Positions 11,073-48,187 of a DNA stretch of 64,000 nt are shown here, in pieces (positions within the stretch are counted from its first letter, which is position 1; each line of letters opens with the position of its first letter). The stretch spans positions 1,569-65,568 of the forward strand of contig CAYPEY010000004.1 of the NCBI GenBank assembly GCA_964409955.1, given 5' to 3'. Position numbers and translations under genes: made by a program. The notes under the pieces are model-generated. The model had not been told where the DNA came from and searched no databases. It saw only the letters and a program-made list of their open reading frames with translations. Source of the stretch: an uncultured Staphylococcaceae bacterium (GTDB lineage: Bacteria; Bacillota_I; Bacilli_A; ML615J-28; CAG-313).

Positions 11073-11705
11073 TTAGTTAAAAATATCAACCAATAATATT
11101 ACACAGGTAGCAGCACCCGCAAGCGCTCTAGCGCCCGGCATTGGTATTGCTGCAATCCCTGCACATACAAGGTATGCTCCAGCAATAGTACCCCACCCTA
11201 CATTTGCAGTAATTTCTTGAGTAGTATTACCAGAAATTGTGCCAAATGAGAAAGAAATACCATCTTGCAAACTAATTTCTGCTCCATAAGTAATCCATGG
11301 TGTCAATTGCATACTAGTACCAAATCCAATGTTTGATGAAACATAAGCACTAATTCCATACCAATTTCCTAAATTCATTCCAACCCCAGCACTATATCCT
11401 CCATTACCTATATTACTATAAGAATAAAACATTTCTGAATCGTTCAATTGAGTTGTTATGGTATAAGAAATATTACCAAAGAAAGATCCAATAAAAGCAT
11501 TTTCAATCAACGAAGTAGTATAGTGTGTCATTTCAACAGAATTCGCTTTAGGCCAATTAATGCTACCAAAACTTGATCCACCTAATGATCCAAAACCACT
11601 AACTTTTGACCCTACAACTACACTTCCGCTTCCAACAATATTACTAAATGTTCCTCTTGTAGAACCAATCATTCCACCACTAGACAATCCACTAACATTT
11701 GAACT
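11073..11705 (-). other. C-terminal variable (toxin) domain of the RHS protein, about 210 aa, unrecognised family
   Basis: The region after NNPIGIVYSS is Gly/Ser-rich with alternating aromatic and small residues (GISAYVSSNIGFGTSMQLTPWITYGAEISLQDGISFSFGTISG). It ends in a hydrophobic segment, GTIAGAYLVCAGIAAIPMPGARALAGAATCVILLV. Confidence 0.5.
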
Positions 11706-14700
11706 ACTATATACAATTCCAATTGGATTATTTTTCGCATAACTATATAGATTTAGTCCATTAATAGATTGTGGATTTAAACTAGAAACATCTGCAGGTT
11801 GGATAAATCTTCCAAGTTCTGGTGAATAATATCTTGCATTACAATAATAAAAATTAGATTCAGTGTCGTAATAATAACCTTTATATCTATATGGATTAAT
11901 ATTAGCTATGGTTGTTCCTTCTAAATTCATTGCTTCCGAAATAGTTTCCCCATATGCTGTATAAGTATATCTAGCAACAAGTTCTCCTGATGAATCTACT
12001 ATATATTCTATATCACCAAGTAAATTTGTTATGTAATAATATATGTTACTTACACTGTTTTGAGTTAGTTTAAATCCTATTAAATTGTTATTATCATAAA
12101 TATATTCTATTGTTTTGTCAGTATGGATTTCACCTATTAAAAGATTATCCATATATACATATTCTATCACATCATATTGATTAGTTGAAGAATTATACAC
12201 TTCTTTTTTTACTCTTCTATCCATTGCATCATATGTATATTTGTATAAATAATATCCTTCATCATCATCATATAATCCTACGAAGTTACTACCTTCATAC
12301 ACGTAAATATAATCATGATAAGAATAAATTCTATTTGCGGAATCATATGTATAATATGTTGTATCACCATTATGCCTTATACTTGTTATTTTTGTTTTGT
12401 TATTTGAATCATATGTAGCTCCAACTTCTACAGATAAATCACCGTATTCTTCACTCTTATTATATCTTTCAATTGCTGTAAGATTTCCTAAACTATCATA
12501 ATAATACGTTGCCTTAAATACATACATTGAAGCATTTCCTGATGCATCTTTTTCCGTTCCAACAAATTCTGTTTTTAACTGATTATACTCATCATAAGTA
12601 TAATCATATACTCGAAAATGAATAGGTAAAACACCTGTTAAATCTTCTACTTCTCTTGTTTTTTGACTAACATTACCCATCACATCATATTTATATTCAT
12701 ATGTTATTCTATATTGTTCAGTATTTATTACTTCTTTAGATATTCTATTAGACGTAAAATTATTATCATATATACTTTGATTTGAATTATTCATATTATC
12801 ACTTGAAAAATATGTATAATCATACGTTATTATATTTTCATATGACACTGTATCAATAATCTTCTTTTGTGTAATTCTTCCAAGTGAATCAGTTATATTT
12901 TGAGTTCTTATATCTAAATAAGTGTTTTCAAAATAATATAAAACATTATCACTATTATATACATAATCTAAGTCGCTTGTTATTCCATTTATATTATATG
13001 TTATACCAGATAACATATTATCATCATCATAATCATATTGTATTTCATTACCAATACTATCTTTAGAAAGAAGTAAATTTCCATTTAAATCATATGTATA
13101 AGTATAATTAATTCCATTAATTCTATCATATACAACTGATAAATTTCCCATTTCATCATATAAATAATCATTATGTATAAAGTATTCATTAGTAGCTATA
13201 TCTTGTTCATAATAATAATCTAATTTTAAATCATCATCATATCCATAATGAATAACATACTGATTTCCATATGTTGCATTTGCAAGTAATCCCGTATATA
13301 TACTTTCATAACTATAGCCATTATAATAATTGTAATTATGATAATCATATTCAACAATAACATTATAAGTTCCAGTAGATGAGCTTCTTTCTGATATCTT
13401 TAGTATATCTCCATATACATTATATTCAAATTTATACTGAATAAAATCTGAACTAGACCCCATCTTTATTGTATCTACATAACCTTCATCATTATATGTA
13501 TAATTAATTTGTCTACTCGCAAGCGATATTTCATTTAATCTTAATAAACTATCATATGTATAGCTAATTACTTTATTATTAGCATTAGTTATAGAATTTA
13601 ATACACCGTTTGCTTCATTGTAATCATATAATGTAGTCACATCATATTCATCTATAAAAGCTTCTGTATACATATAATTTTCACTATATTGATACGAATT
13701 TAAATAATAACCAAGCGTATCATTACCAGTCAATATTTCAGTTACTACATCAATTCCAGTTATACCAAAATTTGTTACCTCTACATTTGAACTTGTATTA
13801 CTAAAAGAATTAATTTTATTTCCATTTATATCTTCCGTTAATGAAATATCATAAGTACTTGCGTCAACTTCTGTAATTTTATTATTTTCATCTCTTGTAA
13901 TAATAGTATTTTCATTAGATTTAGCAACCCCTATAACTTTACCATAATCATTATACTGATATTCAGTCATAGTTGGATTTTTATATAAAACTAAATTATC
14001 AATATAAATGCTATTTTTTCCAGAATTAGAAATAGATATTGTAGCTTGGTCCCAATAACTTTCTACCTCAAATGATTCTAATATATACTGATATCCTAAT
14101 ATATCATTTCGATATTTTATTGTATATATCGAACTACTTGTCAAATCAGTTGTATTATGAAGTTGTAATTTCATTTCAACATCTGAATTATTTGTTGAAA
14201 TATATCCACCAAACGAAATAAATTCTCCGTGATTTACAGATAAATTTATCGTTTTAGACATTGATGTTGCTGAACTTAATCTACCCTCTATATTTCCAAA
14301 TACATTTGAATAATTCCTTAAACATGCTATAACATTAGTCCAACCATTTGCAACTGAACCTCCTTCACTTCCTTCAAATGAATGATCATCGATATAATTA
14401 ATATTTGATGTATTAAAATCATTATGGGTCTCACTAAATCTTAAATTTTCAAAATATGATGTTGTATTATAAGTTGTTGAAAGCTCAATTACAATATCAT
14501 ATAACTCTTCTGAATAACCATTTACTGTAAAATTACAACTATATAGTTTATATTCATCATCTACTGAATTATAAGAAACATTACAATCAACATCAACATC
14601 AGCTAAATTCTTTGGATACACATTAATGTAACCACCATTAATAATCGTTTCATCATTACCAGTTGATTTAACATATCCATAAATTGTATACGATTTATAA

Positions 14701-24690: not shown

Positions 24691-27285
24691 TTAAGCAGCT
24701 TTATTATTTTTATTATTTAAAGCTTCTTGTGCAGCCTTTGCTTCTTCTTCAGCTTTTTTAGCTCTTGCTTCAGCTCTCTTTAAAGCTTTTGCAGCTTTTT
24801 CTGCATCTGCTTGTTCTTTAGCAGCTTGTTCTTGAGCGGCTTGAGCTTCAGCAGCTTCAGATTCTGCCTTTGCTTTAGCTTTTTCTAAAGCTTTTTGAGC
24901 TTTTTCTGCTTTTGCTTCTGCAGCCTCAGCTTCAGCTTTTGCTTTTTCTTCTGCTTCTTTTTTAGCTTTTAAAGTAGCAGCCCTTTTTGCTTTTGCAGCT
25001 TCTTTCTTAGCAGCTTCTTCTTCTGGAGTTAATTCCTTTTTAGCAGCTTCTTTCTTAGCAGCTTCAACTTCTTTAGCAGCTTTAGCTACTTTCTTTTCGG
25101 CTTCTTTTTCTGCTTTTTCAACTTCTTTTTCTGCTTTAGCTACTTTCTTTTCGGCTTCTTTTTCTGCTTTTTCAACTTCTTTTTCAGCCTTAGCTACTTT
25201 CTTTTCAGCTTCTTTTAAAGCTTTTGCTGTTTGTTTTTCTAATTCTTCAGCTTCTTTTTCTGCTTCTTTTCTTGCAGCCTCAGCAGCTTCTGCTTCTTGA
25301 CGAGCTTTTTCAGCAGCTTCTGCATCAAGTTCTGCTTGTTTTCTTGCAGCTTCTGCAGCTTCTGCTTCTTGAGCGGCTTTTTCTTCTGCTTCTTTTCTTG
25401 CAGCTTCTGCAGCAGCTAATTCTTGAGCAGCTTTTTCTTCTGCTTCTTTTCTTGCAGCTTCAACAGCAGCTAATTCTTGAGCAGCTTTTTCTTCTGCTTC
25501 TTTTCTTGCAGCTTCTGCAGCTTCTTTAATAGCTTTAGCAGTTTCTTTTTCAGCTTTAGCTTGAGCAGCAGCTTCTTGTTTAGCACGCTTTTCAGCTTCT
25601 TTTTCTGCTTTTTCAGCATCTTTTTGAGCCTTTGCAATGATCTTTTCAGCTTCTTTTAACTTTTCACGGTTTTGACGTTCAAGTTCTTTAGCTTCTGCTT
25701 TTGCTTTTTCTTCTGCTTCCTTAGCTTCTTGAACTGCTTTTTCCCATGCAAGTTCAGCATCTAATGATTCAGATACTAATTTCTTTAAGAATTCAGGATC
25801 AAGTTCACCTGTATTAACAATCTTTAACCAGTTACCAGCTTTTGGAGTTTTAGCAACTTCGATTTGTCCAGGGTATCCTTGTAAGTAATCAAGTAATGCA
25901 GCTTCTTCAACGAAGAAAGTTACACGATAATCACTTGAAGTTTTTTGCATTAATAAGTAAGGTTTAGCACCAACCATAAATTTATGTTGATTTCCTGCTG
26001 GATTTACAACAACACTTAAATCTTCATGATTTAATTTTTGAGCAAATTCAATCATTTCTTCATAACTTGGTACGAATACTTTTTCTTTCTTAGGAGCAGC
26101 TTCAACAGGTTTTTCTTCTGCTTTGACTTCAACAACTTCTTCAGTTGGAACTTCAGCTTCTTGAGAAGCCTCTGATACTTCTTCAGCAACTTCAGGTTCA
26201 TTTTTAGTTTGAAGTTTAGCAACTTTTTCTTTTAATTCTGCCTCTGCAGCATTTAACGCTTCGTTTTCAACATTTAAAGCTTCTTTTTCTTTATTTAATG
26301 ATTCATTAACAAGTTCTAATTCTTTCTTTAATGTTTCAAGTTCAGCATTTGCAACATCAAGTTTAACTTTATTTTGTAATTCAGCATAAGCAACAGCCAT
26401 TTGATTATATTGAGCAACAGCTGTTTTTTGATTTGCTTTTGATGATTTTAATTCTTGTTTTAATGTAGCAAGTTGATCAGATTCAACAACTACTTGACTA
26501 GGAGCAATACTTACTTCAACGTTTTCATCAATTTCATCTTCATAAACTAAACGTTCATTAGTATATTGATTCATTGAATATAAGATATAAAGTTCAGCAT
26601 TGTAATAAGCTTTTTCTCTAGTTTGAGCCCATTTATCTACCATTTCTTGTTTGCTTCTATTTTCGAACACTTCTTGAGTTAAATATAAAGTAGTAACTCT
26701 ATAAGCAATAACACCAAGAATTCCAACACCTAAAATAATGCAGAAAGCAACGTTCACAGCAGAACTATTTGTTAAAGCAACATCTTGGAATTTATCAAGA
26801 ACTAATGATTTCATTGCAAAAATATCTAATGCAAAGATTACATAAATTGCAATATCTAGTACACTAACTTCATTTTTGCTTAAAGCTAAGTTAACTTTAT
26901 CCATTGCACAAAGTAGTACCATTACAAGTCCTACTGCAACTAGAGCACAAAGGATAACTGTATAAACAAATCTATTAAATGTTAAGACAGACATAGGAGC
27001 TGTACGATTTAATAAGAATACAACATAAACAGATAATGAAACTAAATATGCAACTACTGGAGCATATCCAATAACTGATAAGAAACGATTGTTAGGACGA
27101 TATTCATTAAATTTATGTGCTGTAATAATAATATTTAAAATTGCAATAACTGCTGGTAAAGCAATTAATTTAACAATAACTTCGGCATTACCAAATGTTT
27201 TCCCAAAAGGAATATACATAAGAAGTGATAAACCAATACCTACTAAACCTAAAATAAATGATAAACGATGGTTATTCTTTTTCAT
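24691..27285 (-). CDS. Polytopic membrane protein with coiled coil, MmcQ/YjbR-like domain and an Ala/Glu/Lys repeat tail (function unknown)
   Basis: There are about six N-terminal TM helices, then heptad-like coiled coil. The domain is ...HKFMVGAKPYLLMQKTSSDYRVTFFVEEAALLDYLQGYPGQIEVAKTPKAGNWLKIVNTGELDPEFLKKLVSES. A tail of about 350 aa follows, with KEAEEKAAQELAA and AEKEVEKAEKEAEKKVAK repeats. The start is set at the ATG at 27283-27285; the track start is a GTG. Confidence 0.6.
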   Translation of the reverse strand: MKKNNHRLSFILGLVGIGLSLLMYIPFGKTFGNAEVIVKLIALPAVIAILNIIITAHKFNEYRPNNRFLSVIGYAPVVAYLVSLSVYVVFLLNRTAPMSVLTFNRFVYTVILCALVAVGLVMVLLCAMDKVNLALSKNEVSVLDIAIYVIFALDIFAMKSLVLDKFQDVALTNSSAVNVAFCIILGVGILGVIAYRVTTLYLTQEVFENRSKQEMVDKWAQTREKAYYNAELYILYSMNQYTNERLVYEDEIDENVEVSIAPSQVVVESDQLATLKQELKSSKANQKTAVAQYNQMAVAYAELQNKVKLDVANAELETLKKELELVNESLNKEKEALNVENEALNAAEAELKEKVAKLQTKNEPEVAEEVSEASQEAEVPTEEVVEVKAEEKPVEAAPKKEKVFVPSYEEMIEFAQKLNHEDLSVVVNPAGNQHKFMVGAKPYLLMQKTSSDYRVTFFVEEAALLDYLQGYPGQIEVAKTPKAGNWLKIVNTGELDPEFLKKLVSESLDAELAWEKAVQEAKEAEEKAKAEAKELERQNREKLKEAEKIIAKAQKDAEKAEKEAEKRAKQEAAAQAKAEKETAKAIKEAAEAARKEAEEKAAQELAAVEAARKEAEEKAAQELAAAEAARKEAEEKAAQEAEAAEAARKQAELDAEAAEKARQEAEAAEAARKEAEKEAEELEKQTAKALKEAEKKVAKAEKEVEKAEKEAEKKVAKAEKEVEKAEKEAEKKVAKAAKEVEAAKKEAAKKELTPEEEAAKKEAAKAKRAATLKAKKEAEEKAKAEAEAAEAKAEKAQKALEKAKAKAESEAAEAQAAQEQAAKEQADAEKAAKALKRAEARAKKAEEEAKAAQEALNNKNNKAA
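25081..25215. repeat. In-frame 54-bp tandem repeat (about 2.5 copies)
   Basis: Copies start at 25081, 25135 and 25189 and encode AEKEVEKAEKEAEKKVAK units. Confidence 0.85.
25258..25530. repeat. In-frame 54-bp tandem repeat block (three near-identical core copies plus diverged flanks)
   Basis: Core copies start at 25381, 25435 and 25489 and encode EAARKEAEEKAAQELAAx units. Diverged copies lie near 25258 and 25330. Confidence 0.85.
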
Positions 27286-27309
27286 AGTTTTGTTCACCCT
27301 TTCCTAGTA

Positions 27310-28944
27310 TTAATTTGCTTGTTTTTCAGCGGCTTTTTGAGTAGCTCTTGCAGCAGCTCTTTCTTTAGCTTTCGCTTTTCTTTCTTCCGCTTTTTTTAAA
27401 GCTTCATCAGCTATTTGTTTTTCTGCAGTTTGAACAGCTTGTTTGATAACTTGACGCATAAACTTAGCTTCTTCTTTACCTTTATTAACTAATCTTACCC
27501 ATAAGTTATCTTTTAAGTTTTTAGGAGCTGTTAATTCACCTGGACGAGATTTTAAGTAATTAACAAATTTTTCAGGTGAAGTAATGAAACTTATACGATA
27601 ATCGCTATTTGTTGCTTGCATAACAAGATACATTTTCTTACCAATATAGAATTTATGTAAGTTACCTTTTGCATTAGAAACAACTTTAAATCCTTCATGA
27701 TCACTGAAAGAGTTAGCATATTCAACCATCTTAGCAAATGATGGAACGATTTTATCAACTTTTCTAACAACTTCAACAGGAGCAGATTCTTCTTCAACTG
27801 GTTGAGGAACTACTTCAACAACTTCTTTTTGTTTAGCAAGTTCAGCTTCATATGCATCTTGTGCAGCTTTTAATTCAGCTTTTCTTGAAGCTAATGCAGC
27901 TTTTTCACTATCTAATGCAGCAATTTCTGCTTTTGCTTTTGCGATAGCTTCAGCTGTTGCAGCTTTTTCAGCTTCAACTTTCTTAACTTCTTCTGAATCA
28001 GCAACTTCAGCAACTACAAGTGGAGCAACTTCAACTTCTTCCTCTTCTTCGATTTCGATAGTTTCAACTTGAACTGCAGGTTTTTCTTCAGTTTCAGCAA
28101 GTTCTTCAACTTCTTCTTCAACTTCAGCAACTTCTTCAACAGCTTTTGCTTCAATTGCTTCTTGATTTTCATCAAAGTATGCTTCGTAATCATCTAAAGT
28201 ATCATTGTAAGCACGATTATATTCTGTTTGTTTAATACGTTTATTAGCATCATCACTTTCAGAATAGAATACTAATACTTCATCTTTTCTTACAACTTTA
28301 GAAATGAATTTAATTGTTAAGCCAAAAGCAACAATTAATAAGATGTAAATAAAGAATAATAATGGATTACCTTGGAAATATTCTTCTAAGTGTTGATATC
28401 CGTTATTGTATGCTGCATTGATAAAATATTGTAATGATACAAAACCTACTAACATTAGTAAGCTAAATACATCAAAAATGACGTTACCTGCTGTATCTAA
28501 TTTAATTACTACATTGTGTAATCTAAATAAGCAGTATAATCCAAATACAAAGAATACAACGAATAAAGCAATTACAACACCGATAAGTTTATCTGATAAT
28601 ACACTTAACATAGCAACAGCTGTAAAATCAAATGATAATGTGTAAACCATATTTACGATTGTACCTAAAATGAATAAAAGTGTTGGCATATAAGTCATTA
28701 CTAATACTGTTTTTGAGTATTCACGATTATTTTTTACTAATTGATATTTTTTTACGCTTGGGTAAATTGAAAGTAATAATACAAAAGCAGCAACTGCTAA
28801 TTTGATAATTACTTCTAATTCTAAAACATTTTCAATTTTGTTTAATCCAGGGAAAGATCTAAAAGGGATTGCAGCAACTAATCCAGCTAAAAGACTAAAT
28901 AACCCTAAGACTGTCATTAAGAATTTTTGTTTCTTTGATAACAT
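27310..28944 (-). CDS. Paralogue of the downstream gene: polytopic membrane protein with acidic linker, coiled coil and MmcQ/YjbR-like domain
   Basis: The architecture is the same as the neighbouring gene. The domain is ...HKFYIGKKMYLVMQATNSDYRISFITSPEKFVNYLKSRPGELTAPKNLKDNLWVRLVNKGKEEAKFMRQVIKQA. The start is set at the ATG at 28942-28944, 8 nt after a GGAG. Confidence 0.6.
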   Translation of the reverse strand: MLSKKQKFLMTVLGLFSLLAGLVAAIPFRSFPGLNKIENVLELEVIIKLAVAAFVLLLSIYPSVKKYQLVKNNREYSKTVLVMTYMPTLLFILGTIVNMVYTLSFDFTAVAMLSVLSDKLIGVVIALFVVFFVFGLYCLFRLHNVVIKLDTAGNVIFDVFSLLMLVGFVSLQYFINAAYNNGYQHLEEYFQGNPLLFFIYILLIVAFGLTIKFISKVVRKDEVLVFYSESDDANKRIKQTEYNRAYNDTLDDYEAYFDENQEAIEAKAVEEVAEVEEEVEELAETEEKPAVQVETIEIEEEEEVEVAPLVVAEVADSEEVKKVEAEKAATAEAIAKAKAEIAALDSEKAALASRKAELKAAQDAYEAELAKQKEVVEVVPQPVEEESAPVEVVRKVDKIVPSFAKMVEYANSFSDHEGFKVVSNAKGNLHKFYIGKKMYLVMQATNSDYRISFITSPEKFVNYLKSRPGELTAPKNLKDNLWVRLVNKGKEEAKFMRQVIKQAVQTAEKQIADEALKKAEERKAKAKERAAARATQKAAEKQAN

Positions 28945-29008
28945 AAGTTCCACTCCTTTGTCTATTCAAAACGTTGTATATACATTTACACAACAATTTC
29001 CTATGATT

Positions 29009-36745: not shown

Positions 36746-38290
36746 TTATAATGCAAAATCTTCTAAATTTATAACTCTTGAAGCAACTTTTTCATAGAAT
36801 TCTTTTTCATGACAAACAAGGAGTATTGTACCTTTATAATTATTAATTGCTTCTTGTAATGACTCTTTTGCAAGCACATCTAAATGATTTGTTGGTTCAT
36901 CAAGTACCAAACAATTATACTCACCAATCGTAAGTTTACAAAGTCTTACCTTTGCTGCCTCACCACCAGATAGAGTAATCATTTGTGAATTGATATGTTC
37001 ACTTGTTAAACCTGATGCCGCAAGTGCCGCATGTACTTCTCCTTGGTTTAAAGTTGGGAACATATCCCAAATTTCATCACGAGCAGTATTTCTTGATCCA
37101 GCTACTTCTTGTTCAAAATATCCAAAAGTTATAGTTGGACTCATTTCAACTTCACCTGAAAGTGGTTTTATAATTTTTAGTAAAGTTTTTATCAATGTTG
37201 ATTTTCCAACACCATTTATTCCTTTAATAACAACATGCTCACCTTTAACAATTTCAATGTCCATTGGTTTTGTAAGCGCTCTATCGTAGCCAAGTACAAG
37301 ATTTTCAGTTCTGAATAAGACTTTTCCTGAAGGGCGCCCTTCTTTAAAGATAAAATTAGGTTTTATTTGAATGCGTCCCTTATCAAGGCGTTCCATCTTA
37401 TCAAGCTTTTTTTGTCTACTATTAGCCATACCACGAGTTGCAACACGAGCTTTATTTCTAGCAATAAAGTCTTCCATTTGTTTAATTTCTCTTTGTTGTG
37501 CCTCATACGCTGAATCAGCTTGACGCTTTTTCATTTCATATGCTGATACAAATTGTTCATAATTACCTGTATATCTTGTTAATTCACCATTATCAATATG
37601 ATAAACAACATTGATAACCGAATTTAAGAAGGCAGTATCGTGTGATACTAAAATAAAGGCGTTTTCAAAATTATTTAAATAATTTTTTAACCAATTAACG
37701 TGGTTTTCATCCAAGTAATTAGTCGGTTCATCTAGTATTAAAATACCAGGATTTTGTAACAACAGCTTTGTAAGGAGTACCTTTGCACGTTCACCACCTG
37801 AAAGTTCTGATACATCTTTATCAAGACCTATCGCATGAAGGCCAAGACCAGATGAGATTTCTTCAATTTTGGCATCTATCATGTAGAAACCACCTTGTTC
37901 TAGCATTGATTGCATTTCACCAATATCATCAAGTAATTCTTGCATTCTATCATCATCTGCATCAGCCATTAATTCATAGTTTTTATAGATTTCTTGTTCC
38001 ATATCAAACATGTAACTAAAAGCTTCTTTTAAAAATTCTCTTATCGTTTTACCTTTTGTAAGCGTTGAAAACTGATCTAAGTACCCAACCTTTAAATGCT
38101 TTGCCCATTCAATTTTACCATCGCTTGGTAGTTCATTACCTAAAATAATATTAATAAATGTTGATTTACCTTCACCATTTGCACCAACAATACCTACATG
38201 TTCGCCTTTTAACAATCTAAAACTAGCATTTTTTAAAATTTGACGTCCCCCAAAACTATGAGAAACATTTACTACATTTAATAAACTCAT
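36746..38290 (-). CDS. ABC-F family ATPase (two NBDs, no TM domain)
   Basis: There are two Walker A motifs (GANGEGKST, GINGVGKST) and two signatures (LSGGERAK, LSGGEAAK). The inter-domain linker is about 75 aa. Confidence 0.85.
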   Translation of the reverse strand: MSLLNVVNVSHSFGGRQILKNASFRLLKGEHVGIVGANGEGKSTFINIILGNELPSDGKIEWAKHLKVGYLDQFSTLTKGKTIREFLKEAFSYMFDMEQEIYKNYELMADADDDRMQELLDDIGEMQSMLEQGGFYMIDAKIEEISSGLGLHAIGLDKDVSELSGGERAKVLLTKLLLQNPGILILDEPTNYLDENHVNWLKNYLNNFENAFILVSHDTAFLNSVINVVYHIDNGELTRYTGNYEQFVSAYEMKKRQADSAYEAQQREIKQMEDFIARNKARVATRGMANSRQKKLDKMERLDKGRIQIKPNFIFKEGRPSGKVLFRTENLVLGYDRALTKPMDIEIVKGEHVVIKGINGVGKSTLIKTLLKIIKPLSGEVEMSPTITFGYFEQEVAGSRNTARDEIWDMFPTLNQGEVHAALAASGLTSEHINSQMITLSGGEAAKVRLCKLTIGEYNCLVLDEPTNHLDVLAKESLQEAINNYKGTILLVCHEKEFYEKVASRVINLEDFAL

Positions 38291-38313
38291 ATATTCCTTC
38301 CTTTAAGGTATTC

Positions 38314-39840
38314 TTATTTTTGCCATATTTTTCTATTAAATAGTATTAAAACTGGTAATATTTCAAGACGACCTATTAACATTGTAAATGTCAATATTAA
38401 TGTAGATATATTATTATATAAACTAAAACTACAATAAGGTCCTACAGCATCAAGACCAGGTCCTATGTTTGAAAGACAAGAAATTGTTGATGTGAAAGCA
38501 GTTGTAAACGAATCAGAAGGAAGATTAGGATCAAAAGAAATCAAAATTATTACTATAAAGGCGATTATAAAATATAAACTCAAAAACGCAAATACATCAT
38601 TTATCGTATTTTCTTCTAATGTTTTACCCTCAAAATTTGTTTTAACAACTTGCCGCGGACTGATTAATCTTTTTATTTGTACGCCAACGCCTTTTATCGC
38701 AATCACCAAACGTGATACTTTAATACCACCACCAGTAGATCCAGCCATTGCACCACATAACATTAAAATAATAATTACAGCTTTAGATAAAGAAGGCCAT
38801 AAATCATAATTTGTAGTACTATAACCTGTTGATGTAATAATAGATGCTACCTGAAAATAAGCATGCCTAAAGGTTTCTTCAAAAACTACTGGTGTAAGTT
38901 CACTTATTGAAGACAGTCTATCAACTAGTACATCACCAATTATTATTGTTATTGCAACACCAATAATAATAAAATATGCTTTTAATTCTTCACTTTTGAA
39001 CGCATCTTTAGCTTTTCCAATTAAAATTAAAAAGTATAAACTAAAATTAATACCGAATAAAATTAAGAATGTAGCTACAACATATTGAGTATAGGGACTG
39101 TAATATTCCATACTTCCAGGTATAAATCCAAAGCCTCCTGTACCAGCACTACCAAATGATGTCAATAGATTATGAAACAAATCCATTTTATAAACAGTAC
39201 CATCTGGCCCTACACCATCAGGACTAAATGATAATAAAATAATTTCTAAAACTGTCATTCCAAGATAAATTAAATATAAAATTCTTGTTGTAACCTTCAT
39301 TTTAGACGCAAGTTTACCTACTTGTGGACCAGGACTCTCTGCTTTTAGTAAATGTAGTGATGATCCATCATTACTTTCAGGAATAAAGATTAAAATAAAC
39401 ACTAAAATCCCCATACCACCTATCCAGTGAGTAAAACTACGCCAAAATAAAGAGCTGTGTGAAATTATTGTTATGTCATCAATAATAGATGCTCCAGTAG
39501 TAGTAAAACCTGACATTGTTTCAAATAAAGCATCTATGTAGTTTGGAATATCCCCATTTATTACAAAAGGCATTGCACCAAAAAGAGTCATTATTATCCA
39601 AACAAGAGCACATACCACAAATCCTTCTTTTTGGTATAACCCTTTTCTATCAGTTTTAAATGTTTGGAGAATATTACCTAATAATAGTAACACTATTATT
39701 GGAATAACAAAACCAAGCGGATACCAAATACTTGTTTCATATTCTTTGTAAATTATGCTTACTATAAGTGGGAAAATCATCATAATCCCCTCAAGTATCA
39801 TAATTTTACCAAGAATCTTACTTATTACTTTAAGATCCAT
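38314..39840 (-). CDS. TrkH/KtrB family potassium uptake membrane subunit
   Basis: This polytopic protein has repeated selectivity-filter-like motifs: SGFTTTGAS, SAGTGGFG, ITSTGYS and GSTGGGIK. Confidence 0.85.
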   Translation of the reverse strand: MDLKVISKILGKIMILEGIMMIFPLIVSIIYKEYETSIWYPLGFVIPIIVLLLLGNILQTFKTDRKGLYQKEGFVVCALVWIIMTLFGAMPFVINGDIPNYIDALFETMSGFTTTGASIIDDITIISHSSLFWRSFTHWIGGMGILVFILIFIPESNDGSSLHLLKAESPGPQVGKLASKMKVTTRILYLIYLGMTVLEIILLSFSPDGVGPDGTVYKMDLFHNLLTSFGSAGTGGFGFIPGSMEYYSPYTQYVVATFLILFGINFSLYFLILIGKAKDAFKSEELKAYFIIIGVAITIIIGDVLVDRLSSISELTPVVFEETFRHAYFQVASIITSTGYSTTNYDLWPSLSKAVIIILMLCGAMAGSTGGGIKVSRLVIAIKGVGVQIKRLISPRQVVKTNFEGKTLEENTINDVFAFLSLYFIIAFIVIILISFDPNLPSDSFTTAFTSTISCLSNIGPGLDAVGPYCSFSLYNNISTLILTFTMLIGRLEILPVLILFNRKIWQK

Positions 39841-39847
39841 ACTTCAC

Positions 39848-41203
39848 CTACTCGAAAATATCTTTTAAATCATCAAAGTTTTCATGTTTTGTTACAACAA
39901 TAACACTATCATTTAACATTATACAATCATTACCATTTGGAATTATTACTTGTCCTTCACGAATAATACAAGCTATAAGACAGTTTTCTTTGACATGAAG
40001 ATCACGAAGAGGTTTACCAAAATGTCTTGACTTCTTCTTTGCAAAGAATTCTAATGCTTCTACTTTGTTATTTACAAGTTTATAAAGCGTCATAACATTG
40101 CTTCCACGCTTATTTGTTACAGCCCTAATATAACTAACAATCTTATTTGCAATAATTTCTTTAGGCATAACTACACTAGCTATCCCTAAATCATCAAACA
40201 TATTCGCAAAAGTACTACGTTTTAATTTAGTAATAACCTTTGGAACTTTTTGTTTATTCGCATACATTGAAATAATAATATTTTCTTCATCTATATTTGT
40301 TAAAGAAATACAAGCATCAGTAGTTCTAATACCTTCTTCAATTAATACTTCGTGATCACTTCCATCACAATTTAAAACTGTAACTTTTGGTAAAAGTTCC
40401 GCAAGTTCATTAGCACGTTCTGTATTTGATTCAAGAAGTTTTACTTTATATTTTTTCTTACTAAGTTCATTGGCAAGGTAATATCCAATTTTTCCCCCAC
40501 CAATAATCATAATGTTTTTAAGTGGCGATTTATTTAATTTAACTTCTTGTAAGAAATCAGCAAGGCTTGATGCATCAGCTGTAATATGTAGATGGTCTCC
40601 TGCTTCGATTACAAAGTTACCTGTCGGAATATAAACTTCTGTACCTCTTTGTACAGCACAAACTAAAACTTTAGTTTTAATTTTTTTAGCCATAGAAATT
40701 AAAGTTTCTCCCGCAAGCATACTTTTTTCTTCAACAATGATTTCGATTAAACTTACCTTGCCCTTGGCAAAATGTTCAAGTTTTACAATTGAAGGTAAAT
40801 TAATCATATTCATGATTTCTTCACTTGTTTCTTGCTCCGGATTAACAGTTAAAGTTAGTCCTAATTCTTCTTGCATTAGTTTAGTTTGACGAATATATTC
40901 AGGATTTCTAACGCGCGCAATAGTTGAATCAGCTCCAGCTTTTTTTGCGGCCATACAAGATAAGATATTCATCTCATCACTACTAGTTATCGCAACTACT
41001 AAATTAGTATTCTTTACTCCTGCTTCTTCTAATATTTCAAGACTAGCACCATTACCAACAACACCAACAACGTCAAACTTTTCAATCGCTTCTTCGATTT
41101 TTGCCTTATCAGTATCGATTACTGTAATCGTATGTCCTTCTTTTCTAACGCGTTCAATAATAGTTCTTCCTACTTTCCCGCACCCTACTACTATAATTTT
41201 CAT
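39848..41203 (-). CDS. trkA: Trk system potassium uptake protein TrkA (tandem RCK/NAD-binding domains)
   Basis: There are two Rossmann motifs (MKIIVVGCGKVG and IMIIGGGKIGYYLA). The start is set at the ATG at 41201-41203. Confidence 0.85.
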   Translation of the reverse strand: MKIIVVGCGKVGRTIIERVRKEGHTITVIDTDKAKIEEAIEKFDVVGVVGNGASLEILEEAGVKNTNLVVAITSSDEMNILSCMAAKKAGADSTIARVRNPEYIRQTKLMQEELGLTLTVNPEQETSEEIMNMINLPSIVKLEHFAKGKVSLIEIIVEEKSMLAGETLISMAKKIKTKVLVCAVQRGTEVYIPTGNFVIEAGDHLHITADASSLADFLQEVKLNKSPLKNIMIIGGGKIGYYLANELSKKKYKVKLLESNTERANELAELLPKVTVLNCDGSDHEVLIEEGIRTTDACISLTNIDEENIIISMYANKQKVPKVITKLKRSTFANMFDDLGIASVVMPKEIIANKIVSYIRAVTNKRGSNVMTLYKLVNNKVEALEFFAKKKSRHFGKPLRDLHVKENCLIACIIREGQVIIPNGNDCIMLNDSVIVVTKHENFDDLKDIFE

Positions 41204-41243
41204 AAACACCTCTTACTTAGTCATTTAAAAATTTTAGTTATTT

Positions 41244-41748: not shown

Positions 41749-43305
41749 TTAACTAATCAATAATTCTTCTATACTATATACTTTTGTTGCTAAACGATCA
41801 ACAAAATCTTTTTCATGACTAACGAAAATTACTGTTCCGCCATATTTCTTCAAAGCAGTTAGTAAATCTTCTTTAGCTATTTTATCTAAATGATTTGTCG
41901 GTTCATCTAATATTAATACATTTGCTTTTTGTAACATTACTTTACAAAGTTTAAGTTTTGATTGTTCACCACCAGATAAATTCTTTATCGGTGATACCGC
42001 AAGTTCTTTAGTTAAACCACATTTTGCAAGTAAACTTCTAATTTCACCATTTGATTTATTTGGATAAATATTTTGAATTTCATCTAGTGGTGTTAAATTA
42101 GGATTATCAAAATGATGTTCTTGCTCAAAATATGCAATTTTAGCGTTATCTACAAATTTAAAACTACCATCAATTACTTTTAACTCCCCTATCAAAGTCT
42201 TTAAAAGCGTTGATTTACCTATACCATTGAAACCTGTTATCGCAAGACGAGTTCCACTTCTTATTTCAAAACTTATTGGTGGAAGCAAGCTTGATGTATA
42301 ACCAATTTCAAGTTTATCTACTATTAAAAATCTATCTGATGCAATGGGCGCATAATTAAAATAAAGATTAAGATGAATGTCTGATGCTTTTGGTTTATCC
42401 ATTACTTCAATTCTCTCTAACATCTTTTCTCTACTTTTTGCTTGACGTGCAGTAGATGTTTTAACTTTATTCTTAGCGATATAGTCTTTTAATTGTTTTA
42501 TTTCTTTAACTTGCGCATTATAACGTTTTTCATAATCTTGGTCTGCCATCATTTTTTTAAGTAAATACTCTTGATAGTTTCCTTTATATTTAGTAATTTT
42601 AGAATTTTCTATTTCTAAAACTACATTTACAACATCATTTAAAAATTCTTGATTATGAGAAACGATTAAAAAGTTACCTTTATATTCTTTCAAATATTTA
42701 ACTAACCAATCAACATGAGATGAATCTAAAAAGTTAGTCGGTTCATCAAGAATTAATAAGTCTGGTTCTTCAAGCAAAAGTTTTGCAAGAATTACTTTTA
42801 TCTTTTGGCCACCTGAAAGTTTAGATAACTTGGTATTTAATCCATAATTAGTGATTCCAAGACCTGTTACAATACGACCTATTTTAGAATCTATTGCGTA
42901 AAAGTCACTTGCTTCTAGTTCTTCTCTAATTTGAGTAGTAAGCCTAACTAATCTATCAATTAATACAGCATCGGTTGTATTAGATAATTCATCTAAGTAT
43001 TTATTCATTTCAGCATCTTTATCATATAACTTGATAAAGGCTTTTTTTAAATAATTATCAATTGAGATATCTTGATTAATACTCATATATTGATCAAGAT
43101 AACCAACTTTGATATTTTTATCAAAAGTAATATTTCCAGAATCTGGAATAACTGATGAACATAAGATTTTAATTAAAGTTGTTTTACCAACTCCATTATT
43201 GCCAACAATTCCAATTTTCTCGTTAGGTAATACTCTAAAAGAAGCATTTCTAAATAGCTCTTTTTTATCATATGTTAGCGATAAGTTTTCCACTGTCAAA
43301 AGCAT
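41749..43305 (-). CDS. ABC-F family ATPase (second copy)
   Basis: Walker A motifs are GNNGVGKTT and GFNGIGKST. Signatures are LSGGQKIK and LSGGEQSK. There is no TM domain. Confidence 0.85.
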   Translation of the reverse strand: MLLTVENLSLTYDKKELFRNASFRVLPNEKIGIVGNNGVGKTTLIKILCSSVIPDSGNITFDKNIKVGYLDQYMSINQDISIDNYLKKAFIKLYDKDAEMNKYLDELSNTTDAVLIDRLVRLTTQIREELEASDFYAIDSKIGRIVTGLGITNYGLNTKLSKLSGGQKIKVILAKLLLEEPDLLILDEPTNFLDSSHVDWLVKYLKEYKGNFLIVSHNQEFLNDVVNVVLEIENSKITKYKGNYQEYLLKKMMADQDYEKRYNAQVKEIKQLKDYIAKNKVKTSTARQAKSREKMLERIEVMDKPKASDIHLNLYFNYAPIASDRFLIVDKLEIGYTSSLLPPISFEIRSGTRLAITGFNGIGKSTLLKTLIGELKVIDGSFKFVDNAKIAYFEQEHHFDNPNLTPLDEIQNIYPNKSNGEIRSLLAKCGLTKELAVSPIKNLSGGEQSKLKLCKVMLQKANVLILDEPTNHLDKIAKEDLLTALKKYGGTVIFVSHEKDFVDRLATKVYSIEELLIS

Positions 43306-43306
43306 A

Positions 43307-43795
43307 TTATGCCTCCTTCTTATTTATTCTTAAGTTCTCCTTTTTTGCAAACTCTGCTGCTTTGTATAAATCACTTAAATATAGTAATTTATCTGTAAAA
43401 ATATAATTTACATTTGCATATCCTTTTTCAACAAGCATTACATTTAATAACTTATAATCAACCCACACCCAGGCAAGTAATCTTTTGGGATATGAATCAT
43501 CATATAACGAATCAAATGGATCAGTTTGAAGATAAATGTTTTTAGCATATTTTAAACAATTGTCTGTAAAGGTTCTTGCTTCGACGGAATATAATTCTTT
43601 TTCTTCAGTATAGTACTCTGGAGTATCAACGCCAAAGAAACGAACTCTTACTGCCGCACCATCAATTAAAAAACATGCAGTGTCACCATCAAGGGTATAA
43701 ATATACTCTACTTTTTTAAATCCACCACCTGCTGTATCATCATCTGTAATAAAATCTTGATTATTAAAGGCAAGATAAGGTCCATTATATTTCAT
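43307..43795 (-). CDS. Thermonuclease (staphylococcal nuclease, SNase) family protein without a signal peptide
   Basis: LDGDTACF...VRVRFFGVDTPE...PKRLLAWVW preserves the SNase Ca-binding and catalytic residues (D, R, D-T-P-E, R). The 25-aa N-terminal extension MKYNGPYLAFNNQDFITDDDTAGGG has no hydrophobic core. Confidence 0.8.
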   Translation of the reverse strand: MKYNGPYLAFNNQDFITDDDTAGGGFKKVEYIYTLDGDTACFLIDGAAVRVRFFGVDTPEYYTEEKELYSVEARTFTDNCLKYAKNIYLQTDPFDSLYDDSYPKRLLAWVWVDYKLLNVMLVEKGYANVNYIFTDKLLYLSDLYKAAEFAKKENLRINKKEA

Positions 43796-43799
43796 ATTA

Positions 43800-44228
43800 T
43801 TAAATATTTCCTTTAAATATTTTCTTTACAATATGTTTAATTCTTCTAAATAAGCGTGTTCTAACACGTCTTTTAGCATATTTTAAATGGGCAGCATTTC
43901 GTGATTCAAAATAATTTTCACCCTTGTAATATCCTTCCATTACCCCTATAACCCAACCGTCTTTAACATATTTTTCAAGACCTACTTGATTATCGCCACA
44001 AAGTACATATCCTTTTTTAGTAATTTTTACAATTCGGTGAAGTACATATTTCCCGTTTGGTCTTCTATATAAAATAACATCATACTTCTTTAATGGGACA
44101 GTTACAGGAACAATCTTTACAGTATCTTTACCTTCTTCGATTAATGGTAACATTGAGTTTCCTGTTGGAGTAACTATACAAAAGCCAATTTCATCAATCT
44201 TTTGTTTGTAAGGGCAACTACTCAACAA
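43800..44228 (-). CDS. S24/S26 family serine peptidase-like protein (soluble)
   Basis: GNSMLP carries the nucleophile Ser, HRIVKI a candidate general-base Lys, and a CGDN motif is present. The TTG start lies 6 nt after a GGAGG and overlaps the PqqD-like gene by 11 nt. The C-terminus is a basic amphipathic tail. Confidence 0.7.
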   Translation of the reverse strand: MLSSCPYKQKIDEIGFCIVTPTGNSMLPLIEEGKDTVKIVPVTVPLKKYDVILYRRPNGKYVLHRIVKITKKGYVLCGDNQVGLEKYVKDGWVIGVMEGYYKGENYFESRNAAHLKYAKRRVRTRLFRRIKHIVKKIFKGNI

Positions 44229-44481
44229 GTTTAGCCTCCACTACTTTCTTGATGAATTTTTCAACATCAATTTCTGCTTGTTGTTTGTCTACTTCATATT
44301 CACCAAGTAAAGCTTCAACTAAAGTTGCTTTTGTTGCTTCATTTTCAAGACATTTCCAAAGAAATGCTCCACTTTCATTAAGAGTAATAAGCCCATTAAA
44401 CTCCTTTGTTGCTTTTCCTGTTGCGACAACTACAAAATTTCCTGCAACTTCTCTTAATATAAAGCCTTTTTTTACTTTCAT
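44218..44481 (-). CDS. PqqD family protein (RiPP recognition element-like)
   Basis: The 87-aa protein reads FILREVAGNFVVVATG...LITLNESGAFLWKCLENEATKATLVEALLGEYEVDKQQAEIDVEKFIKKV. This matches the PqqD/RRE winged-helix pattern. Confidence 0.75.
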   Translation of the reverse strand: MKVKKGFILREVAGNFVVVATGKATKEFNGLITLNESGAFLWKCLENEATKATLVEALLGEYEVDKQQAEIDVEKFIKKVVEAKLVE

Positions 44482-44490
44482 ACGTTTCTC

Positions 44491-46128
44491 CTATTCTTTA
44501 CAGATTATTGTTGAATCAACAAAGTCTAATTCTTTATTACAAATTTCCTTTGATGCGTCTTTATGCGTAACAATAATACATGTTAAATCTTTCATTTTCT
44601 TTAAATTTTCTAATAATTTAATTTCAGTATTTAAATCAAGGGCACTTGTTGCTTCATCTAATAATAAAATTGGTTTATTATTAAGTAATGCTCTAGCTAT
44701 TGCAAGACGTTGGATTTGACCTTCAGAGAGTCCTAGTCCCCTTTCTCCAATAACAGTATCAATTCCATCATCTAATTTTTCAATAAAATCAAGGGCACAA
44801 CTATTAACTAAAGCATTATGAATATCATCATATGAAACATCAGTTTTGAAGAAAGTTAAGTTTTCTTTAATTGTACCACTGAATACGAAATTACCTTGTG
44901 GAACATAAGAGAAAAGTCCTCTTGTTCCTTTTGATATTTTTATTTCATTATCATCTTGCTTAATAATTAAACTACCTTCTTTTGCTTCATATAAACCTAG
45001 TAATAGTTTTAAAAGTGTTGATTTGCCGATACCTGATGATCCTTTAATCAAAACAAAATCACCTTTATTAAGAGTAAATGAACTAGAATTAATTACTTCA
45101 AAATCATCATATTTAAAACTTAAATCTTCCGCAATTATCTTATCAAATTCATAAGATGAAAGTCTTTCTATTACTTCATCTTCTTTTAAATTGATAATTT
45201 CTATGATTCTATCAGCTGATGCTATCATTGAGTAATACTTACTAAATGTTCCAGAAAGTGAGACAAGTGGAGATCTAATTTGTGCAACAAGTTGAATTAA
45301 AGCAAGAATTGTTCCATAAGTAATTAAGCCTTCATCATATAATAAACACCATACAGCATAAACAATTGTTAAAGCATAAGCTAGTCTAAATACTAAGTTA
45401 AGACAAGCGTTAATACTAGTAGAGAATCTTAATTTCTTTATTTGAATATTTTCAGAATCTGTTTGTTTATTATAAGCTTTTTTAAATGTTGCTTTTTCAC
45501 CTTTAAATGATTTAATAATTAACATTGATTCAATCGATTCTTGATAATAAGCTCTAACATTACCTTCTGCTTCTTGAACATTTTTATGTAGAGCTTTTAA
45601 TTTTTTTCTAAATACAAACGACAAAGCAAATCCAAGAATTCCAACAAAAATAAAGAATAAACCAAGAATTGGTAATATATAAGTAATTACCACCATTCCA
45701 AGTACAAGTTTTGTAACCATTAATACTACTTGAGGAAGTAGTGTCGCAAGCGTTGATGACACAACTGATACATCACTTGTTAAATAATTCATTATTTTTC
45801 CACTATGAACTTTAGAAATTGTTTCATAGTCTTTATTAAAAATATTTTCATATAAATCAAGTCGAATCATTTTTTCAATTTTAATTGTATTTTTAGATTG
45901 AAAAAAAGTATTTATAGCGTTTAATAATATAATTGATGTAATAACAGAAATTAAAACAATCATATTAACAGTAAAATTATCTTTAGTTGAATCTACCATG
46001 TTTTGTGATGCAAAGGCCAAATAAATACTTACCACCGCAAGCACTAAACTAGTAAGAATAGAAATAATAAAATTTAGTAAATTTTTATTTAATACTTTAA
46101 ATAAATAATTCATTTTATTAACTTTCAT
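44491..46128 (-). CDS. ABC transporter, fused permease/ATP-binding exporter (no C39 peptidase domain)
   Basis: The N-terminal half has six TM helices. Walker A is GSSGIGKST, the signature is LSEGQIQR and Walker B is ILLLDEAT. Confidence 0.85.
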   Translation of the reverse strand: MKVNKMNYLFKVLNKNLLNFIISILTSLVLAVVSIYLAFASQNMVDSTKDNFTVNMIVLISVITSIILLNAINTFFQSKNTIKIEKMIRLDLYENIFNKDYETISKVHSGKIMNYLTSDVSVVSSTLATLLPQVVLMVTKLVLGMVVITYILPILGLFFIFVGILGFALSFVFRKKLKALHKNVQEAEGNVRAYYQESIESMLIIKSFKGEKATFKKAYNKQTDSENIQIKKLRFSTSINACLNLVFRLAYALTIVYAVWCLLYDEGLITYGTILALIQLVAQIRSPLVSLSGTFSKYYSMIASADRIIEIINLKEDEVIERLSSYEFDKIIAEDLSFKYDDFEVINSSSFTLNKGDFVLIKGSSGIGKSTLLKLLLGLYEAKEGSLIIKQDDNEIKISKGTRGLFSYVPQGNFVFSGTIKENLTFFKTDVSYDDIHNALVNSCALDFIEKLDDGIDTVIGERGLGLSEGQIQRLAIARALLNNKPILLLDEATSALDLNTEIKLLENLKKMKDLTCIIVTHKDASKEICNKELDFVDSTIICKE

Positions 46129-46949: not shown

Positions 46950-46985
46950 ATAGAAAAAAAGAAAAATAGGTGATTATTCACCTAT
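46950..46985 (-). terminator. Intrinsic terminator after htrA
   Basis: On the minus strand the sequence is ATAGGTGA-ataa-TCACCTAT followed by TTTTCTTTTTTT. It overlaps the TAG stop. Confidence 0.75.
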
Positions 46986-48187
46986 TTTAAAGTTACTGTT
47001 GTTGTTTTTATTGTATTAGTAGAACGACAATAATATGTAATTTCTACTTTTGAACCAATGAAATAATCATTTAAAGAATTTAAATATCCAGATAAAATGT
47101 TCATTCGTGTAAGTTTGACACTTCCAAATTGAAGAATTATATCATCAGCTTTGATACCTGATCCATCAACTGAGCCACCTTTTGTAACTTCTACAACGTA
47201 TAAACCATAAGGAGTTTCATCTCCATAGATATCCGGAATTTCTTTCATTCCATTTGATGCAATAATTGCTGGAGTTAATTCTCTTACTTCTGATCCTGTA
47301 ATACCAAGACGAGGTCTTACTACAGGTTCACCCTTTTCCAGGAAGTTTTCAAGAATATTTTTAGCAATATTAGATGGAACTGCAAATCCCATGTTTTCAT
47401 AGTTATCTTTTACCATTTTTAATGTATTAATTCCAACCAATTTTCCATCAATTGTGAAAAGTCCACCACCACTATTACCTGGGTTGATTGCTGCATCATG
47501 TTGAATATACGCACCATTAAAATCATTTACACCATCACTATCTGTATCTTCACTAATATAACGAAGAGTACCACTAATAACACCAAGTGTTACTGAACCA
47601 TAGTAATCAAATCCATCAGGATTACCAATAGCAAACACATATTCACCTTTTCTAATATCATCACTATCAGCAAATTCTACAGTTTTAATCTTTTTAGCAT
47701 AATTAAATTTGATTAAAGCTATATCAGCTTTATCATCATATCCCATGATTTCCGCTTCTATTTCTAAATCAATATTTCCTAGATAAATATATGCAGTGTA
47801 TGTATATTTTTCAGGATAACTTCCATTAATTACGTGACTATTTGTCACTACATAATATGTATAATCTACTACTTCATCTTCACTATCTAAATTTTCAAAT
47901 CTTTTATAGATAACGCCACTTCCATAGCTTTCAACATCAGTTGATTCTACTAAAGTTCCGTTAATCATAGTTTTATGAGTGTATTTTAAACTTACACCAA
48001 TTACAGAATCTTCTATTACTTCTACGATATCAGCAAGTTCGTTTGCATCAGATACAATTTTATCTGTTTCTCCGTTATTTTCAGAATTATTTGTTGTTCC
48101 CCCACCCGTAGTAATATTAATACCTGTACATCCAGCTAGAGTAAACACTAATAATATTGTTATTAATAATCTATATATTTTTTTCAT
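46982..48187 (-). CDS. htrA: HtrA/DegP-type trypsin-like serine protease with PDZ domain (lipoprotein signal)
   Basis: The lipobox is LVFTLAGCTG. The catalytic elements are TNSHVI (His), DIALIK (Asp) and GNSGGGLF (Ser). The C-terminal region is PDZ-like. Confidence 0.85.
   Translation of the reverse strand: MKKIYRLLITILLVFTLAGCTGINITTGGGTTNNSENNGETDKIVSDANELADIVEVIEDSVIGVSLKYTHKTMINGTLVESTDVESYGSGVIYKRFENLDSEDEVVDYTYYVVTNSHVINGSYPEKYTYTAYIYLGNIDLEIEAEIMGYDDKADIALIKFNYAKKIKTVEFADSDDIRKGEYVFAIGNPDGFDYYGSVTLGVISGTLRYISEDTDSDGVNDFNGAYIQHDAAINPGNSGGGLFTIDGKLVGINTLKMVKDNYENMGFAVPSNIAKNILENFLEKGEPVVRPRLGITGSEVRELTPAIIASNGMKEIPDIYGDETPYGLYVVEVTKGGSVDGSGIKADDIILQFGSVKLTRMNILSGYLNSLNDYFIGSKVEITYYCRSTNTIKTTTVTLK

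Follow-up and report, generated by a model that had tools for sequence, protein, structure and literature searches.

What is the task of an ATP-binding cassette (ABC) exporter, a PqqD-like protein, a stand-alone peptidase and a nuclease whose genes lie within a few nucleotides of one another? This question is raised by a 64-kb stretch of DNA from an uncultured Staphylococcaceae bacterium (contig CAYPEY010000004.1), which we refer to, at its full length, as the window. The four open reading frames (ORFs) are real and all lie on the minus strand: the exporter gene (44491-46128, 545 aa), the PqqD-like gene (44218-44481, 87 aa), the peptidase gene (43800-44228, 142 aa, with a TTG start) and a gene of the staphylococcal nuclease family (SNase; 43307-43795, 162 aa). 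A first-pass annotation had described them as a module in the style of systems for ribosomally synthesized peptides with post-translational modifications (RiPPs) and had suggested that the nuclease itself might be the exported cargo. We consider it likely that only the first three genes, at 43800-46128, belong together, as a reduced, kinase-less RiPP cassette with a peptidase like signal peptidase I (SpI) and a RiPP recognition element. This cassette would be part of a clade that is sister to the linear polyphosphorylated peptide (LPP) clusters, and its substrate would be encoded elsewhere in the genome. The nuclease is most likely an adjacent resident gene, a bystander and not a cassette member.

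A Predicted Leader Peptidase, Its Adapter and Its Exporter

LPPs are RiPPs of Bacillota with the components LppA/K/B/S/D/N (Popov et al., Nat Commun 17:6633, 2026, PMC13381572). In that system LppK polyphosphorylates Ser3 of the core, and LppS cleaves only when LppB presents the leader; the substitutions S29A, H68A and D93A in LppS each abolish cleavage (PMC13381572). The view of an exporter, a PqqD-like protein and a stand-alone peptidase as a unit of leader recognition, cleavage and export matches LPP well (PMC13381572), and the proteins of the window were compared with its components one at a time.

The window peptidase has no Pfam match. Its best NCBIfam matches are sigpep_I_arch and SipW, the archaeal-type signal peptidase I model reaching E = 7e-7, below its curated cut-off. 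It is 29% identical to LppS (WP_029196374.1, E = 3e-11), and its residues S25, H64 and E85 are paired in the alignment with S29, H68 and D93, the catalytic residues of LppS, the acid being Glu and not Asp. All three are among the positions that are invariant in 23 homologues (G23, S25, M26, P28, H64, R65, G78, D79 and E85), and 821 homologues were found in the protein collection. The AlphaFold2 model of the peptidase (predicted local distance difference test score, pLDDT, of 92) has the clan SF fold, with matches to SipA, SpsB, LexA and UmuD, and it includes an N-terminal helix, the part that in the published model is in contact with LppB. Together, these data identify the protein as a putative soluble, SpI-like serine leader peptidase of the LppS kind, with S25, H64 and E85 as its predicted catalytic residues. 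It is indeed stand-alone, as the first-pass annotation had it, but the Ser/Lys type assigned there has to be replaced by a Ser/His(/acid) type, archaeal or SipW-like, in view of the invariant S25/H64/E85. The motif pattern GxSMxP ... HR ... GDN/E is held in common with SipW and the archaeal (endoplasmic reticulum-type) signal peptidases I, from which the window protein differs in having no membrane anchor, in being about 140 aa long, cytoplasmic and paired with an adapter, and in scoring below the curated cut-offs.

The PqqD-like protein matches the Pfam PqqD family (PF05402, E = 1.9e-17) and, below cut-off, the NCBIfam model for lasso PqqD chaperones (7e-10). When it was compared with the chains of crystal structures in the PDB, it matched PbaB1 (9x90, E = 1.6e-4) and LppB (9x8z, E = 1.8e-3). 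These similarities mark it as a discrete RiPP recognition element, predicted to act as a leader-binding adapter like LppB or the lasso B1 proteins.

The exporter contains ABC_membrane (6e-31) and ABC_tran (7.5e-27) domains, and its best NCBIfam similarity, below cut-off, is to MsbA. The absence of a C39 peptidase domain was confirmed, as the transmembrane domain begins at residue 18 and matches to the NCBIfam peptidase-ABC models begin only at about model position 140. Among all the loci described below, the exporter is closest to those linked to PqqD and peptidase genes (33-40% identity, E 1e-98 to 1e-136), whereas identity to the remaining ABC exporters in the window reaches just 27-28%. Because of this pattern of relatedness, we regard it as a genuine cassette component, and its similarities suggest an MsbA-like half-transporter serving as an LppD-like pump. 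By analogy, the separate peptidase may do the job that a C39 domain does elsewhere, and the evidence supports that assignment. The C39 exporters of bacteriocins and peptide pheromones likewise couple leader removal to ABC export of a small peptide; the cassette differs from them in its separate serine peptidase, which would be adapter-dependent if it works as LppS does, and in having no double-glycine leader logic.

Related Cassettes and the LPP Sister Clade

Homologues of the peptidase were followed through six contig look-ups and a scan of species-representative genomes, and the loci were annotated with profiles built in this analysis (individual loci are given below by an L and a number). 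On the six contigs the PqqD and peptidase genes formed a conserved pair with an overlap of a few bases; it was preceded by an NTP_transf_5 or ScmC-like gene, and no nuclease or exporter gene adjoined it. The scan added 80 further peptidase loci from Clostridia, Bacilli and 'Tenericutes' metagenome-assembled genomes, and of the first 600 matches to the peptidase pattern in species-representative genomes, 540 stretches were confirmed. The recurrent gene order was ScmC/HprK-like kinase, PqqD and peptidase, followed optionally by an ABC exporter of 550-570 aa and by NTP_transf_5.

Linkage was counted in the 47 species-representative loci with 3.5 kb or more of sequence on each side of the peptidase gene. 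An HprK-like/ScmC kinase was found in 38 of these (81%), a PqqD adapter in 36 (77%), an NTP_transf_5 transferase in 13 (28%), an exporter of the window's type in nine (19%) and an SNase in none (0/47). In addition, several of the genes were found fused, PqqD to peptidase in L030 (a 242-aa ORF) and L085 (237 aa) and peptidase to NTP_transf_5 in L055 (540 aa), which supports a physical cooperation of adapter, peptidase and transferase. In six loci (L035, L037, L061, L070, L087 and L094) the peptidase gene came directly after the HprK-like gene, and a separate PqqD ORF was not detected; the adapter is either missing from these loci or was overlooked by ORF or profile calling.

The placement of this family came from Supplementary Data 1 of the LPP study, in which the sequence similarity network (SSN) clusters #4 and #9 are given as 'RRE others' with the precursor listed as ND (PMC13381572). 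The peptidases and adapters of these two clusters carry the signatures of the window's family (KKYD..LHR..GDN and MKIKEGFxLREVAG..., respectively), and because of this match we assign the window cassette, on the strength of its signatures, to a sister clade of LPP that has been recognised but not characterised. The likeness to LPP extends to the discrete PqqD adapter, the soluble Ser/His/acid peptidase and the MsbA-like exporter of the window, and to the HprK-like kinase, NTP_transf_5 and precursors with an N-terminal Y-x-x-P leader of related clade loci. The differences lie in the modest similarity of the window peptidase to LppS, in an adapter similarity to LppB that is marginal, in the leader sequence of the clade (described below), and in the window copy being without kinase, transferase and precursor.

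A comparison with lasso peptide clusters is also called for, as the best PDB match of the adapter, PbaB1, belongs with the B1-like adapters of the paeninodin and pseudomycoidin lasso clusters of Bacillota. The clade shares with these the accessory set of HprK-like kinase, NTP_transf_5 and ABC exporter (PMC7533575, PMC13381572). However, the window has neither a lasso cyclase nor a transglutaminase-like B2, and an SpI-like serine peptidase stands in the place of B2. L046, a locus inspected in full, likewise had no lasso cyclase or B2 adjoining its five-gene cassette.

A Family of Small, Probable Precursor Peptides

The canonical LPP leader YxxPxVLxHQxIxFET, and looser forms of it, had no match in six-frame regular-expression scans of the window and 106 loci. 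A scan for ORFs near the cassettes with an N-terminal Y-x-x-P-x-hydrophobic motif, in contrast to these, returned a coherent family of small, unannotated ORFs. A seed profile picked out 24 distinct small peptides in related loci, encoded at 1-7 kb from the peptidase gene; 22 of them scored E<0.001 against the profile, and a whole-database profile search with their alignment identified 303 proteins at E<=0.01 (best E 1e-12). Seven fetched members listed as 77-111 aa long were mis-called starts of peptides of about 38 aa, and trimming left 114 distinct peptides of 31-81 aa.

The leader of these peptides has the form MKExYxxPxxEhhxFxxEDhITTSG (consensus MKEEYETPEMEIVEFETEDVITTSG; an example is MKKEYQVPFIEIIEIEEDIITFSNTG), which sets it apart from the LPP leader, and is followed by a short acidic core, the acidic tail often ending in W or F. 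No Pfam model and no NCBIfam model covers the peptides. Precursor ORFs were located, among other places, at L072:8239-8376, L004:12898-13035, L001:2894-2989 and 8481-8576, L090:7401-7502, L025:11264-11371 and L067:5573-5692. Based on their sequence and position, we think that these are probably the precursors of the LPP sister clade that the LPP study lists as ND. The window adapter is 44-52% identical to the adapters of precursor-bearing loci, and because of this similarity it would most likely bind the same type of leader.

Two of the precursor loci had an unusual arrangement. In L001 a segment of about 300 nt with identical translation is duplicated (L001:2864-3180 and L001:8451-8760), each copy holding a 31-aa precursor gene and the start of a gene for a large surface protein with Flg_new repeats, so that two precursor copies flank the cassette. 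In L004 there is an overlap between the precursor and the start of a gene for a GHL10 glycosidase with a Sec signal.

The Cassette in Its Neighborhood

The gene order in the window is murI-ABC-PqqD-peptidase-SNase-ABC-F-AAA_33, and it is kept in close relatives (56-68% identity). In relatives at 47-53% identity the order is murI-SNase-ABC-F-AAA_33-polC; the cassette, present between murI and SNase in the window lineage, is absent at that position. A block of TrkA, TrkH and a second ABC-F gene, between AAA_33 and polC in the window (36746-41209), is a second presence/absence difference in the cassette neighborhood, as it is missing in the syntenic loci L102 and L105, where AAA_33 is followed directly by polC.

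The three ORFs of the cassette are intact in four diverged lineages (the window, L095, L099 and L101), and neither the catalytic S, H and E nor the Walker motifs have been lost in the cassette lineages. The ratio of non-synonymous to synonymous substitution rates (dN/dS) against relatives of 51-68% identity was 0.16-0.46 for the cassette genes, compared to 0.28 for murI and 0.32-0.40 for the SNase, although these values are rough, with synonymous sites near saturation. The cassette is under purifying selection and has probably retained its function.

The spacings in the window are as the first-pass annotation gave them, a 9-nt gap between exporter and PqqD genes, an 11-nt overlap of PqqD and peptidase genes and a 4-nt gap between peptidase and SNase genes. 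The tight coupling, however, is not special to these four genes, since close spacing is usual along this strand, with 8 nt between murI and the exporter gene, 1 nt between SNase and ABC-F and 34 nt between ABC-F and AAA_33. The sole convincing terminator-like hairpin (46963-46988, minus strand; an 11-bp stem and a T run) lies between an HtrA-like gene and murI, upstream of the latter, and no comparable terminator was seen from murI to the AAA_33 kinase gene. The transcription unit that includes the cassette is probably bounded upstream by this hairpin. Close spacing along the strand and a single terminator upstream of murI thus place the four genes in a longer unit rather than in an operon of their own.

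The remainder of the window was searched for the missing components of a RiPP cluster. Pfam scans of its 44 large ORFs identified no radical SAM protein, YcaO or lasso cyclase, in agreement with the earlier claim that there is no maturase, and no HprK-like kinase or NTP_transf_5. The lasso hallmarks, an Asn-synthetase-like cyclase C and a transglutaminase-like B2, were likewise not found among these ORFs, and in the Pfam scans the other large ORFs of the window gave housekeeping genes only. With a profile of 67 ScmC/HprK-like proteins from related loci, the best E in the window was 1.4, and NTP_transf_5 had no profile match anywhere in the 64 kb. The earlier statement that there is no small precursor ORF was also upheld, as a small-ORF scan of all the intergenic gaps of the window found no precursor-like peptide.

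How the Window Cassette May Work

By analogy with LppB, LppS and LppD, we propose the following sequence of events. The adapter would bind the leader of a small ribosomal peptide, of the MKExYxxPxxEhhxFxxEDhITTSG type with a short acidic core, and present the junction of leader and core, at which the soluble Ser/His peptidase would remove the leader. The MsbA-like ABC exporter would then pump the core out of the cell. The substrate gene would lie outside the 64-kb window, elsewhere in the genome.

Several observations weigh against this proposal. The substrate has not been seen, since no precursor of the clade type is present in the window (best profile E = 11). Every one of the exporter-bearing cassettes among the 47 well-flanked loci has a kinase, and the wider set added L093 alone as a kinase-less trio like that of the window. 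Phosphorylation is what defines LPPs, and their precursor is a poor cleavage substrate when unphosphorylated (PMC13381572). Lastly, an N-terminal Y-x-x-P-x-hydrophobic motif is rare (two of 1241 long ORFs), and one of its two occurrences is in the nuclease that adjoins the cassette. As to the first of these points, a recognisable precursor was within reach in just 11 of the 47 well-flanked loci, and its absence from 64 kb is therefore not unusual.

The same gaps could be read as those of a decaying remnant, in which kinase, transferase and precursor have been lost and the function of the trio has gone. The window has none of these three components, its cassette composition is unusual among the 47 well-flanked loci, and the LPP study reports many gain and loss events in LPP clusters (PMC13381572). 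We think this an unlikely explanation, as the three intact ORFs in four lineages, with their catalytic residues and Walker motifs, and dN/dS values comparable to those of flanking housekeeping genes are not what decay would be expected to leave.

It is also unlikely that the cassette acts on a different kind of substrate, either by processing another protein or by serving in immunity or efflux for a peptide made by neighboring cells. The cognate substrate is unseen in the window, a precursor was recognised in a minority of the well-flanked loci, and the biological role of LPP is not established even in the studied system (PMC13381572), all of which leave room for such a role. However, there is no positive evidence for it. 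An adapter together with a leader peptidase follows a biosynthetic logic and not one of immunity, and the window adapter is close to the adapters of precursor-bearing loci. A cassette that matures and exports a small peptide encoded elsewhere in the genome accords better with these features.

The Nuclease Is Most Likely a Bystander

The SNase has a Pfam match to PF00565 (E = 1.7e-11) and, as previously noted, keeps the full catalytic set, with D38, R52, D57, T58, E60 and R105 corresponding to D21, R35, D40, T41, E43 and R87 of S. aureus nuclease. Its model aligned with S. aureus nuclease structures (1kaa, 1ey4 and others) at a target-normalised TM-score of 0.9 and 32% identity. It differs from the staphylococcal nuclease family in having no signal peptide, and none can be hidden upstream because the stop codon of the peptidase gene is only 4 nt away. 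About 20 homologues have the same leaderless N-terminus, MKYxGPxxxxNxxPFxxxxxPxGG[FY], and more distant relatives have a signal or anchor segment.

These features lie behind the proposal that the adapter binds the N-terminal 25 residues of the SNase (MKYNGPYLAFNNQDFITDDDTAGGG), that the peptidase cuts there and that the ABC transporter exports the nuclease. There are indeed points in its favor. Y3-x-x-P6-x-L8 of the SNase is the core of the motif [Y/W]xxPx[L/V/I/F/A] bound by lasso and LPP adapters (PMC13381572), the spacing 'P-x8-F-I-T' is one residue short of the LPP P-x9-F-x-[T/A], and the rarity of such N-termini has been mentioned above. The gene follows that of the peptidase after 4 nt, and relatives of 56-68% identity retain both the gap and the order. 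Secretion is the norm in the enzyme family, but the window member has no signal peptide. Putative LPP precursor ORFs range from 35 to 200 aa (PMC13381572).

The comparative evidence does not bear the proposal out. The triad of PqqD-like protein, peptidase (S24/S26 in the earlier assignment) and SNase is not conserved, since an SNase was present in 0 of 94 other peptidase loci, and an adapter, peptidase, kinase or transferase gene was found within 8 kb in 0 of 80 metagenomic SNase loci. What the PqqD-peptidase pair does co-occur with is a separate small precursor and modifying enzymes, which largely contradicts the cargo hypothesis, and the precursor family of the clade consists entirely of small peptides. 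Leaderless SNases with the same N-terminus also occur without the cassette in several lineages, in the order murI-SNase-ABC-F or HtrA-ABC-F-SNase. The adjacency of cassette and SNase in close relatives is not independent evidence because the whole block from murI to AAA_33 is syntenic. The SNase identities to cassette-bearing (55-57%) and cassette-free (47-54%) relatives are too similar to favor either insertion or loss of the cassette between murI and SNase. In L099 and L100 the cassette-adjacent nuclease starts MTEPKF, with the tyrosine lost.

The structure of the N-terminal segment points in the same direction. The first-pass annotation was correct that the SNase has a distinct extension, as a segment of 25 residues is conserved in a subfamily of secreted and leaderless relatives, but the suggestion that it is a cleavable leader is not supported. 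The AlphaFold2 model has pLDDT values of 91, 97 and 98 for residues 1-10, 11-20 and 21-30, and the segment is thus predicted to be ordered, unlike a free leader. Relatives bearing a signal peptide or lipobox (L119, L121-L123, L125-L127, L129, L146, L150, L151, L155 and L165) have the homologous Y-x-G-P-x-L...F...DG[YF]xxV behind the signal peptide and a linker, right before the DGDT core. With this position in secreted or lipoprotein relatives, the segment belongs ancestrally to the mature domain.

In addition, residues 1-35 of SNases were scored against the profile of 114 leaders. The N-terminus of the window SNase scored 2.2 bits, and six relatives scored -1.4 to -2.4 bits, the three other cassette-adjacent ones lying at -1.5 to -2.4 bits. 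The maximum in a null set of 1219 unrelated N-termini was 5.8 bits, so that all the SNase N-termini tested fall inside the null. Genuine precursors in the loci reached as much as 72 bits when scored with an earlier seed profile (17-72 bits for those at E<0.01). Based on these comparative, structural and profile results, we judge it highly improbable that the nuclease is the cargo.

The conserved partner of the SNase across lineages is the ABC-F gene, which encodes a ribosome-associated ATPase. The leaderless subfamily adjoins it in L102-L110 (murI-SNase-ABC-F), in L113-L117 (HtrA-ABC-F-SNase) and in the window (41749-43795), and in a metagenome scan of 80 further SNase loci 14 were leaderless and usually adjoined an ABC-F gene. 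This arrangement suggests that a cytoplasmic nuclease and ABC-F may be functionally connected, independently of the cassette. As a separate observation, the nuclease start is shifted in L099 (3085-3215) and L100, and the ancestral tyrosine codon lies between the stop codon of the peptidase gene and the ATG of the nuclease gene.

Other Features of the Window

Two further regions of the window drew attention, both on the minus strand. A 2101-aa ORF (11073-17378), for which Pfam gave no match at E<=1e-5, precedes small ORFs at 10168-10440 and 10621-11058. One of the small ORFs, of 90 aa, contains YCNSNPVMFADDNGNWP, resembling the end of RHS/YD-repeat cores; this region may be a polymorphic toxin locus. 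Adjacent ORFs of 868 aa (24691-27297) and 547 aa (27310-28953), also without a Pfam match at E<=1e-5, sit in the highest-GC stretch of the window, where the AT skew is also strong (24-26 kb; GC 0.34, AT skew -0.32).

Conclusions

This analysis places the locus in a RiPP family that was first described in 2026, and it gives no evidence for a dedicated nuclease export system. Were the cassette, once it had landed upstream of a leaderless nuclease already bearing a Y-x-x-P-x-L N-terminus, to have been co-opted for the recognition, trimming and secretion of that nuclease, a scenario to which we attach very little probability, this would be a new, Sec-independent route of protein export built from RiPP parts. 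In uncultured Clostridia and Bacilli of gut and rumen, the pair of SpI-like peptidase and adapter has a far wider distribution than in the published Bacillales set. The family of about 300 precursor peptides, previously unassigned, makes this clade minable and testable. The trio in the window itself raises the question of whether leader removal and export can proceed without the phosphorylation that defines the class.

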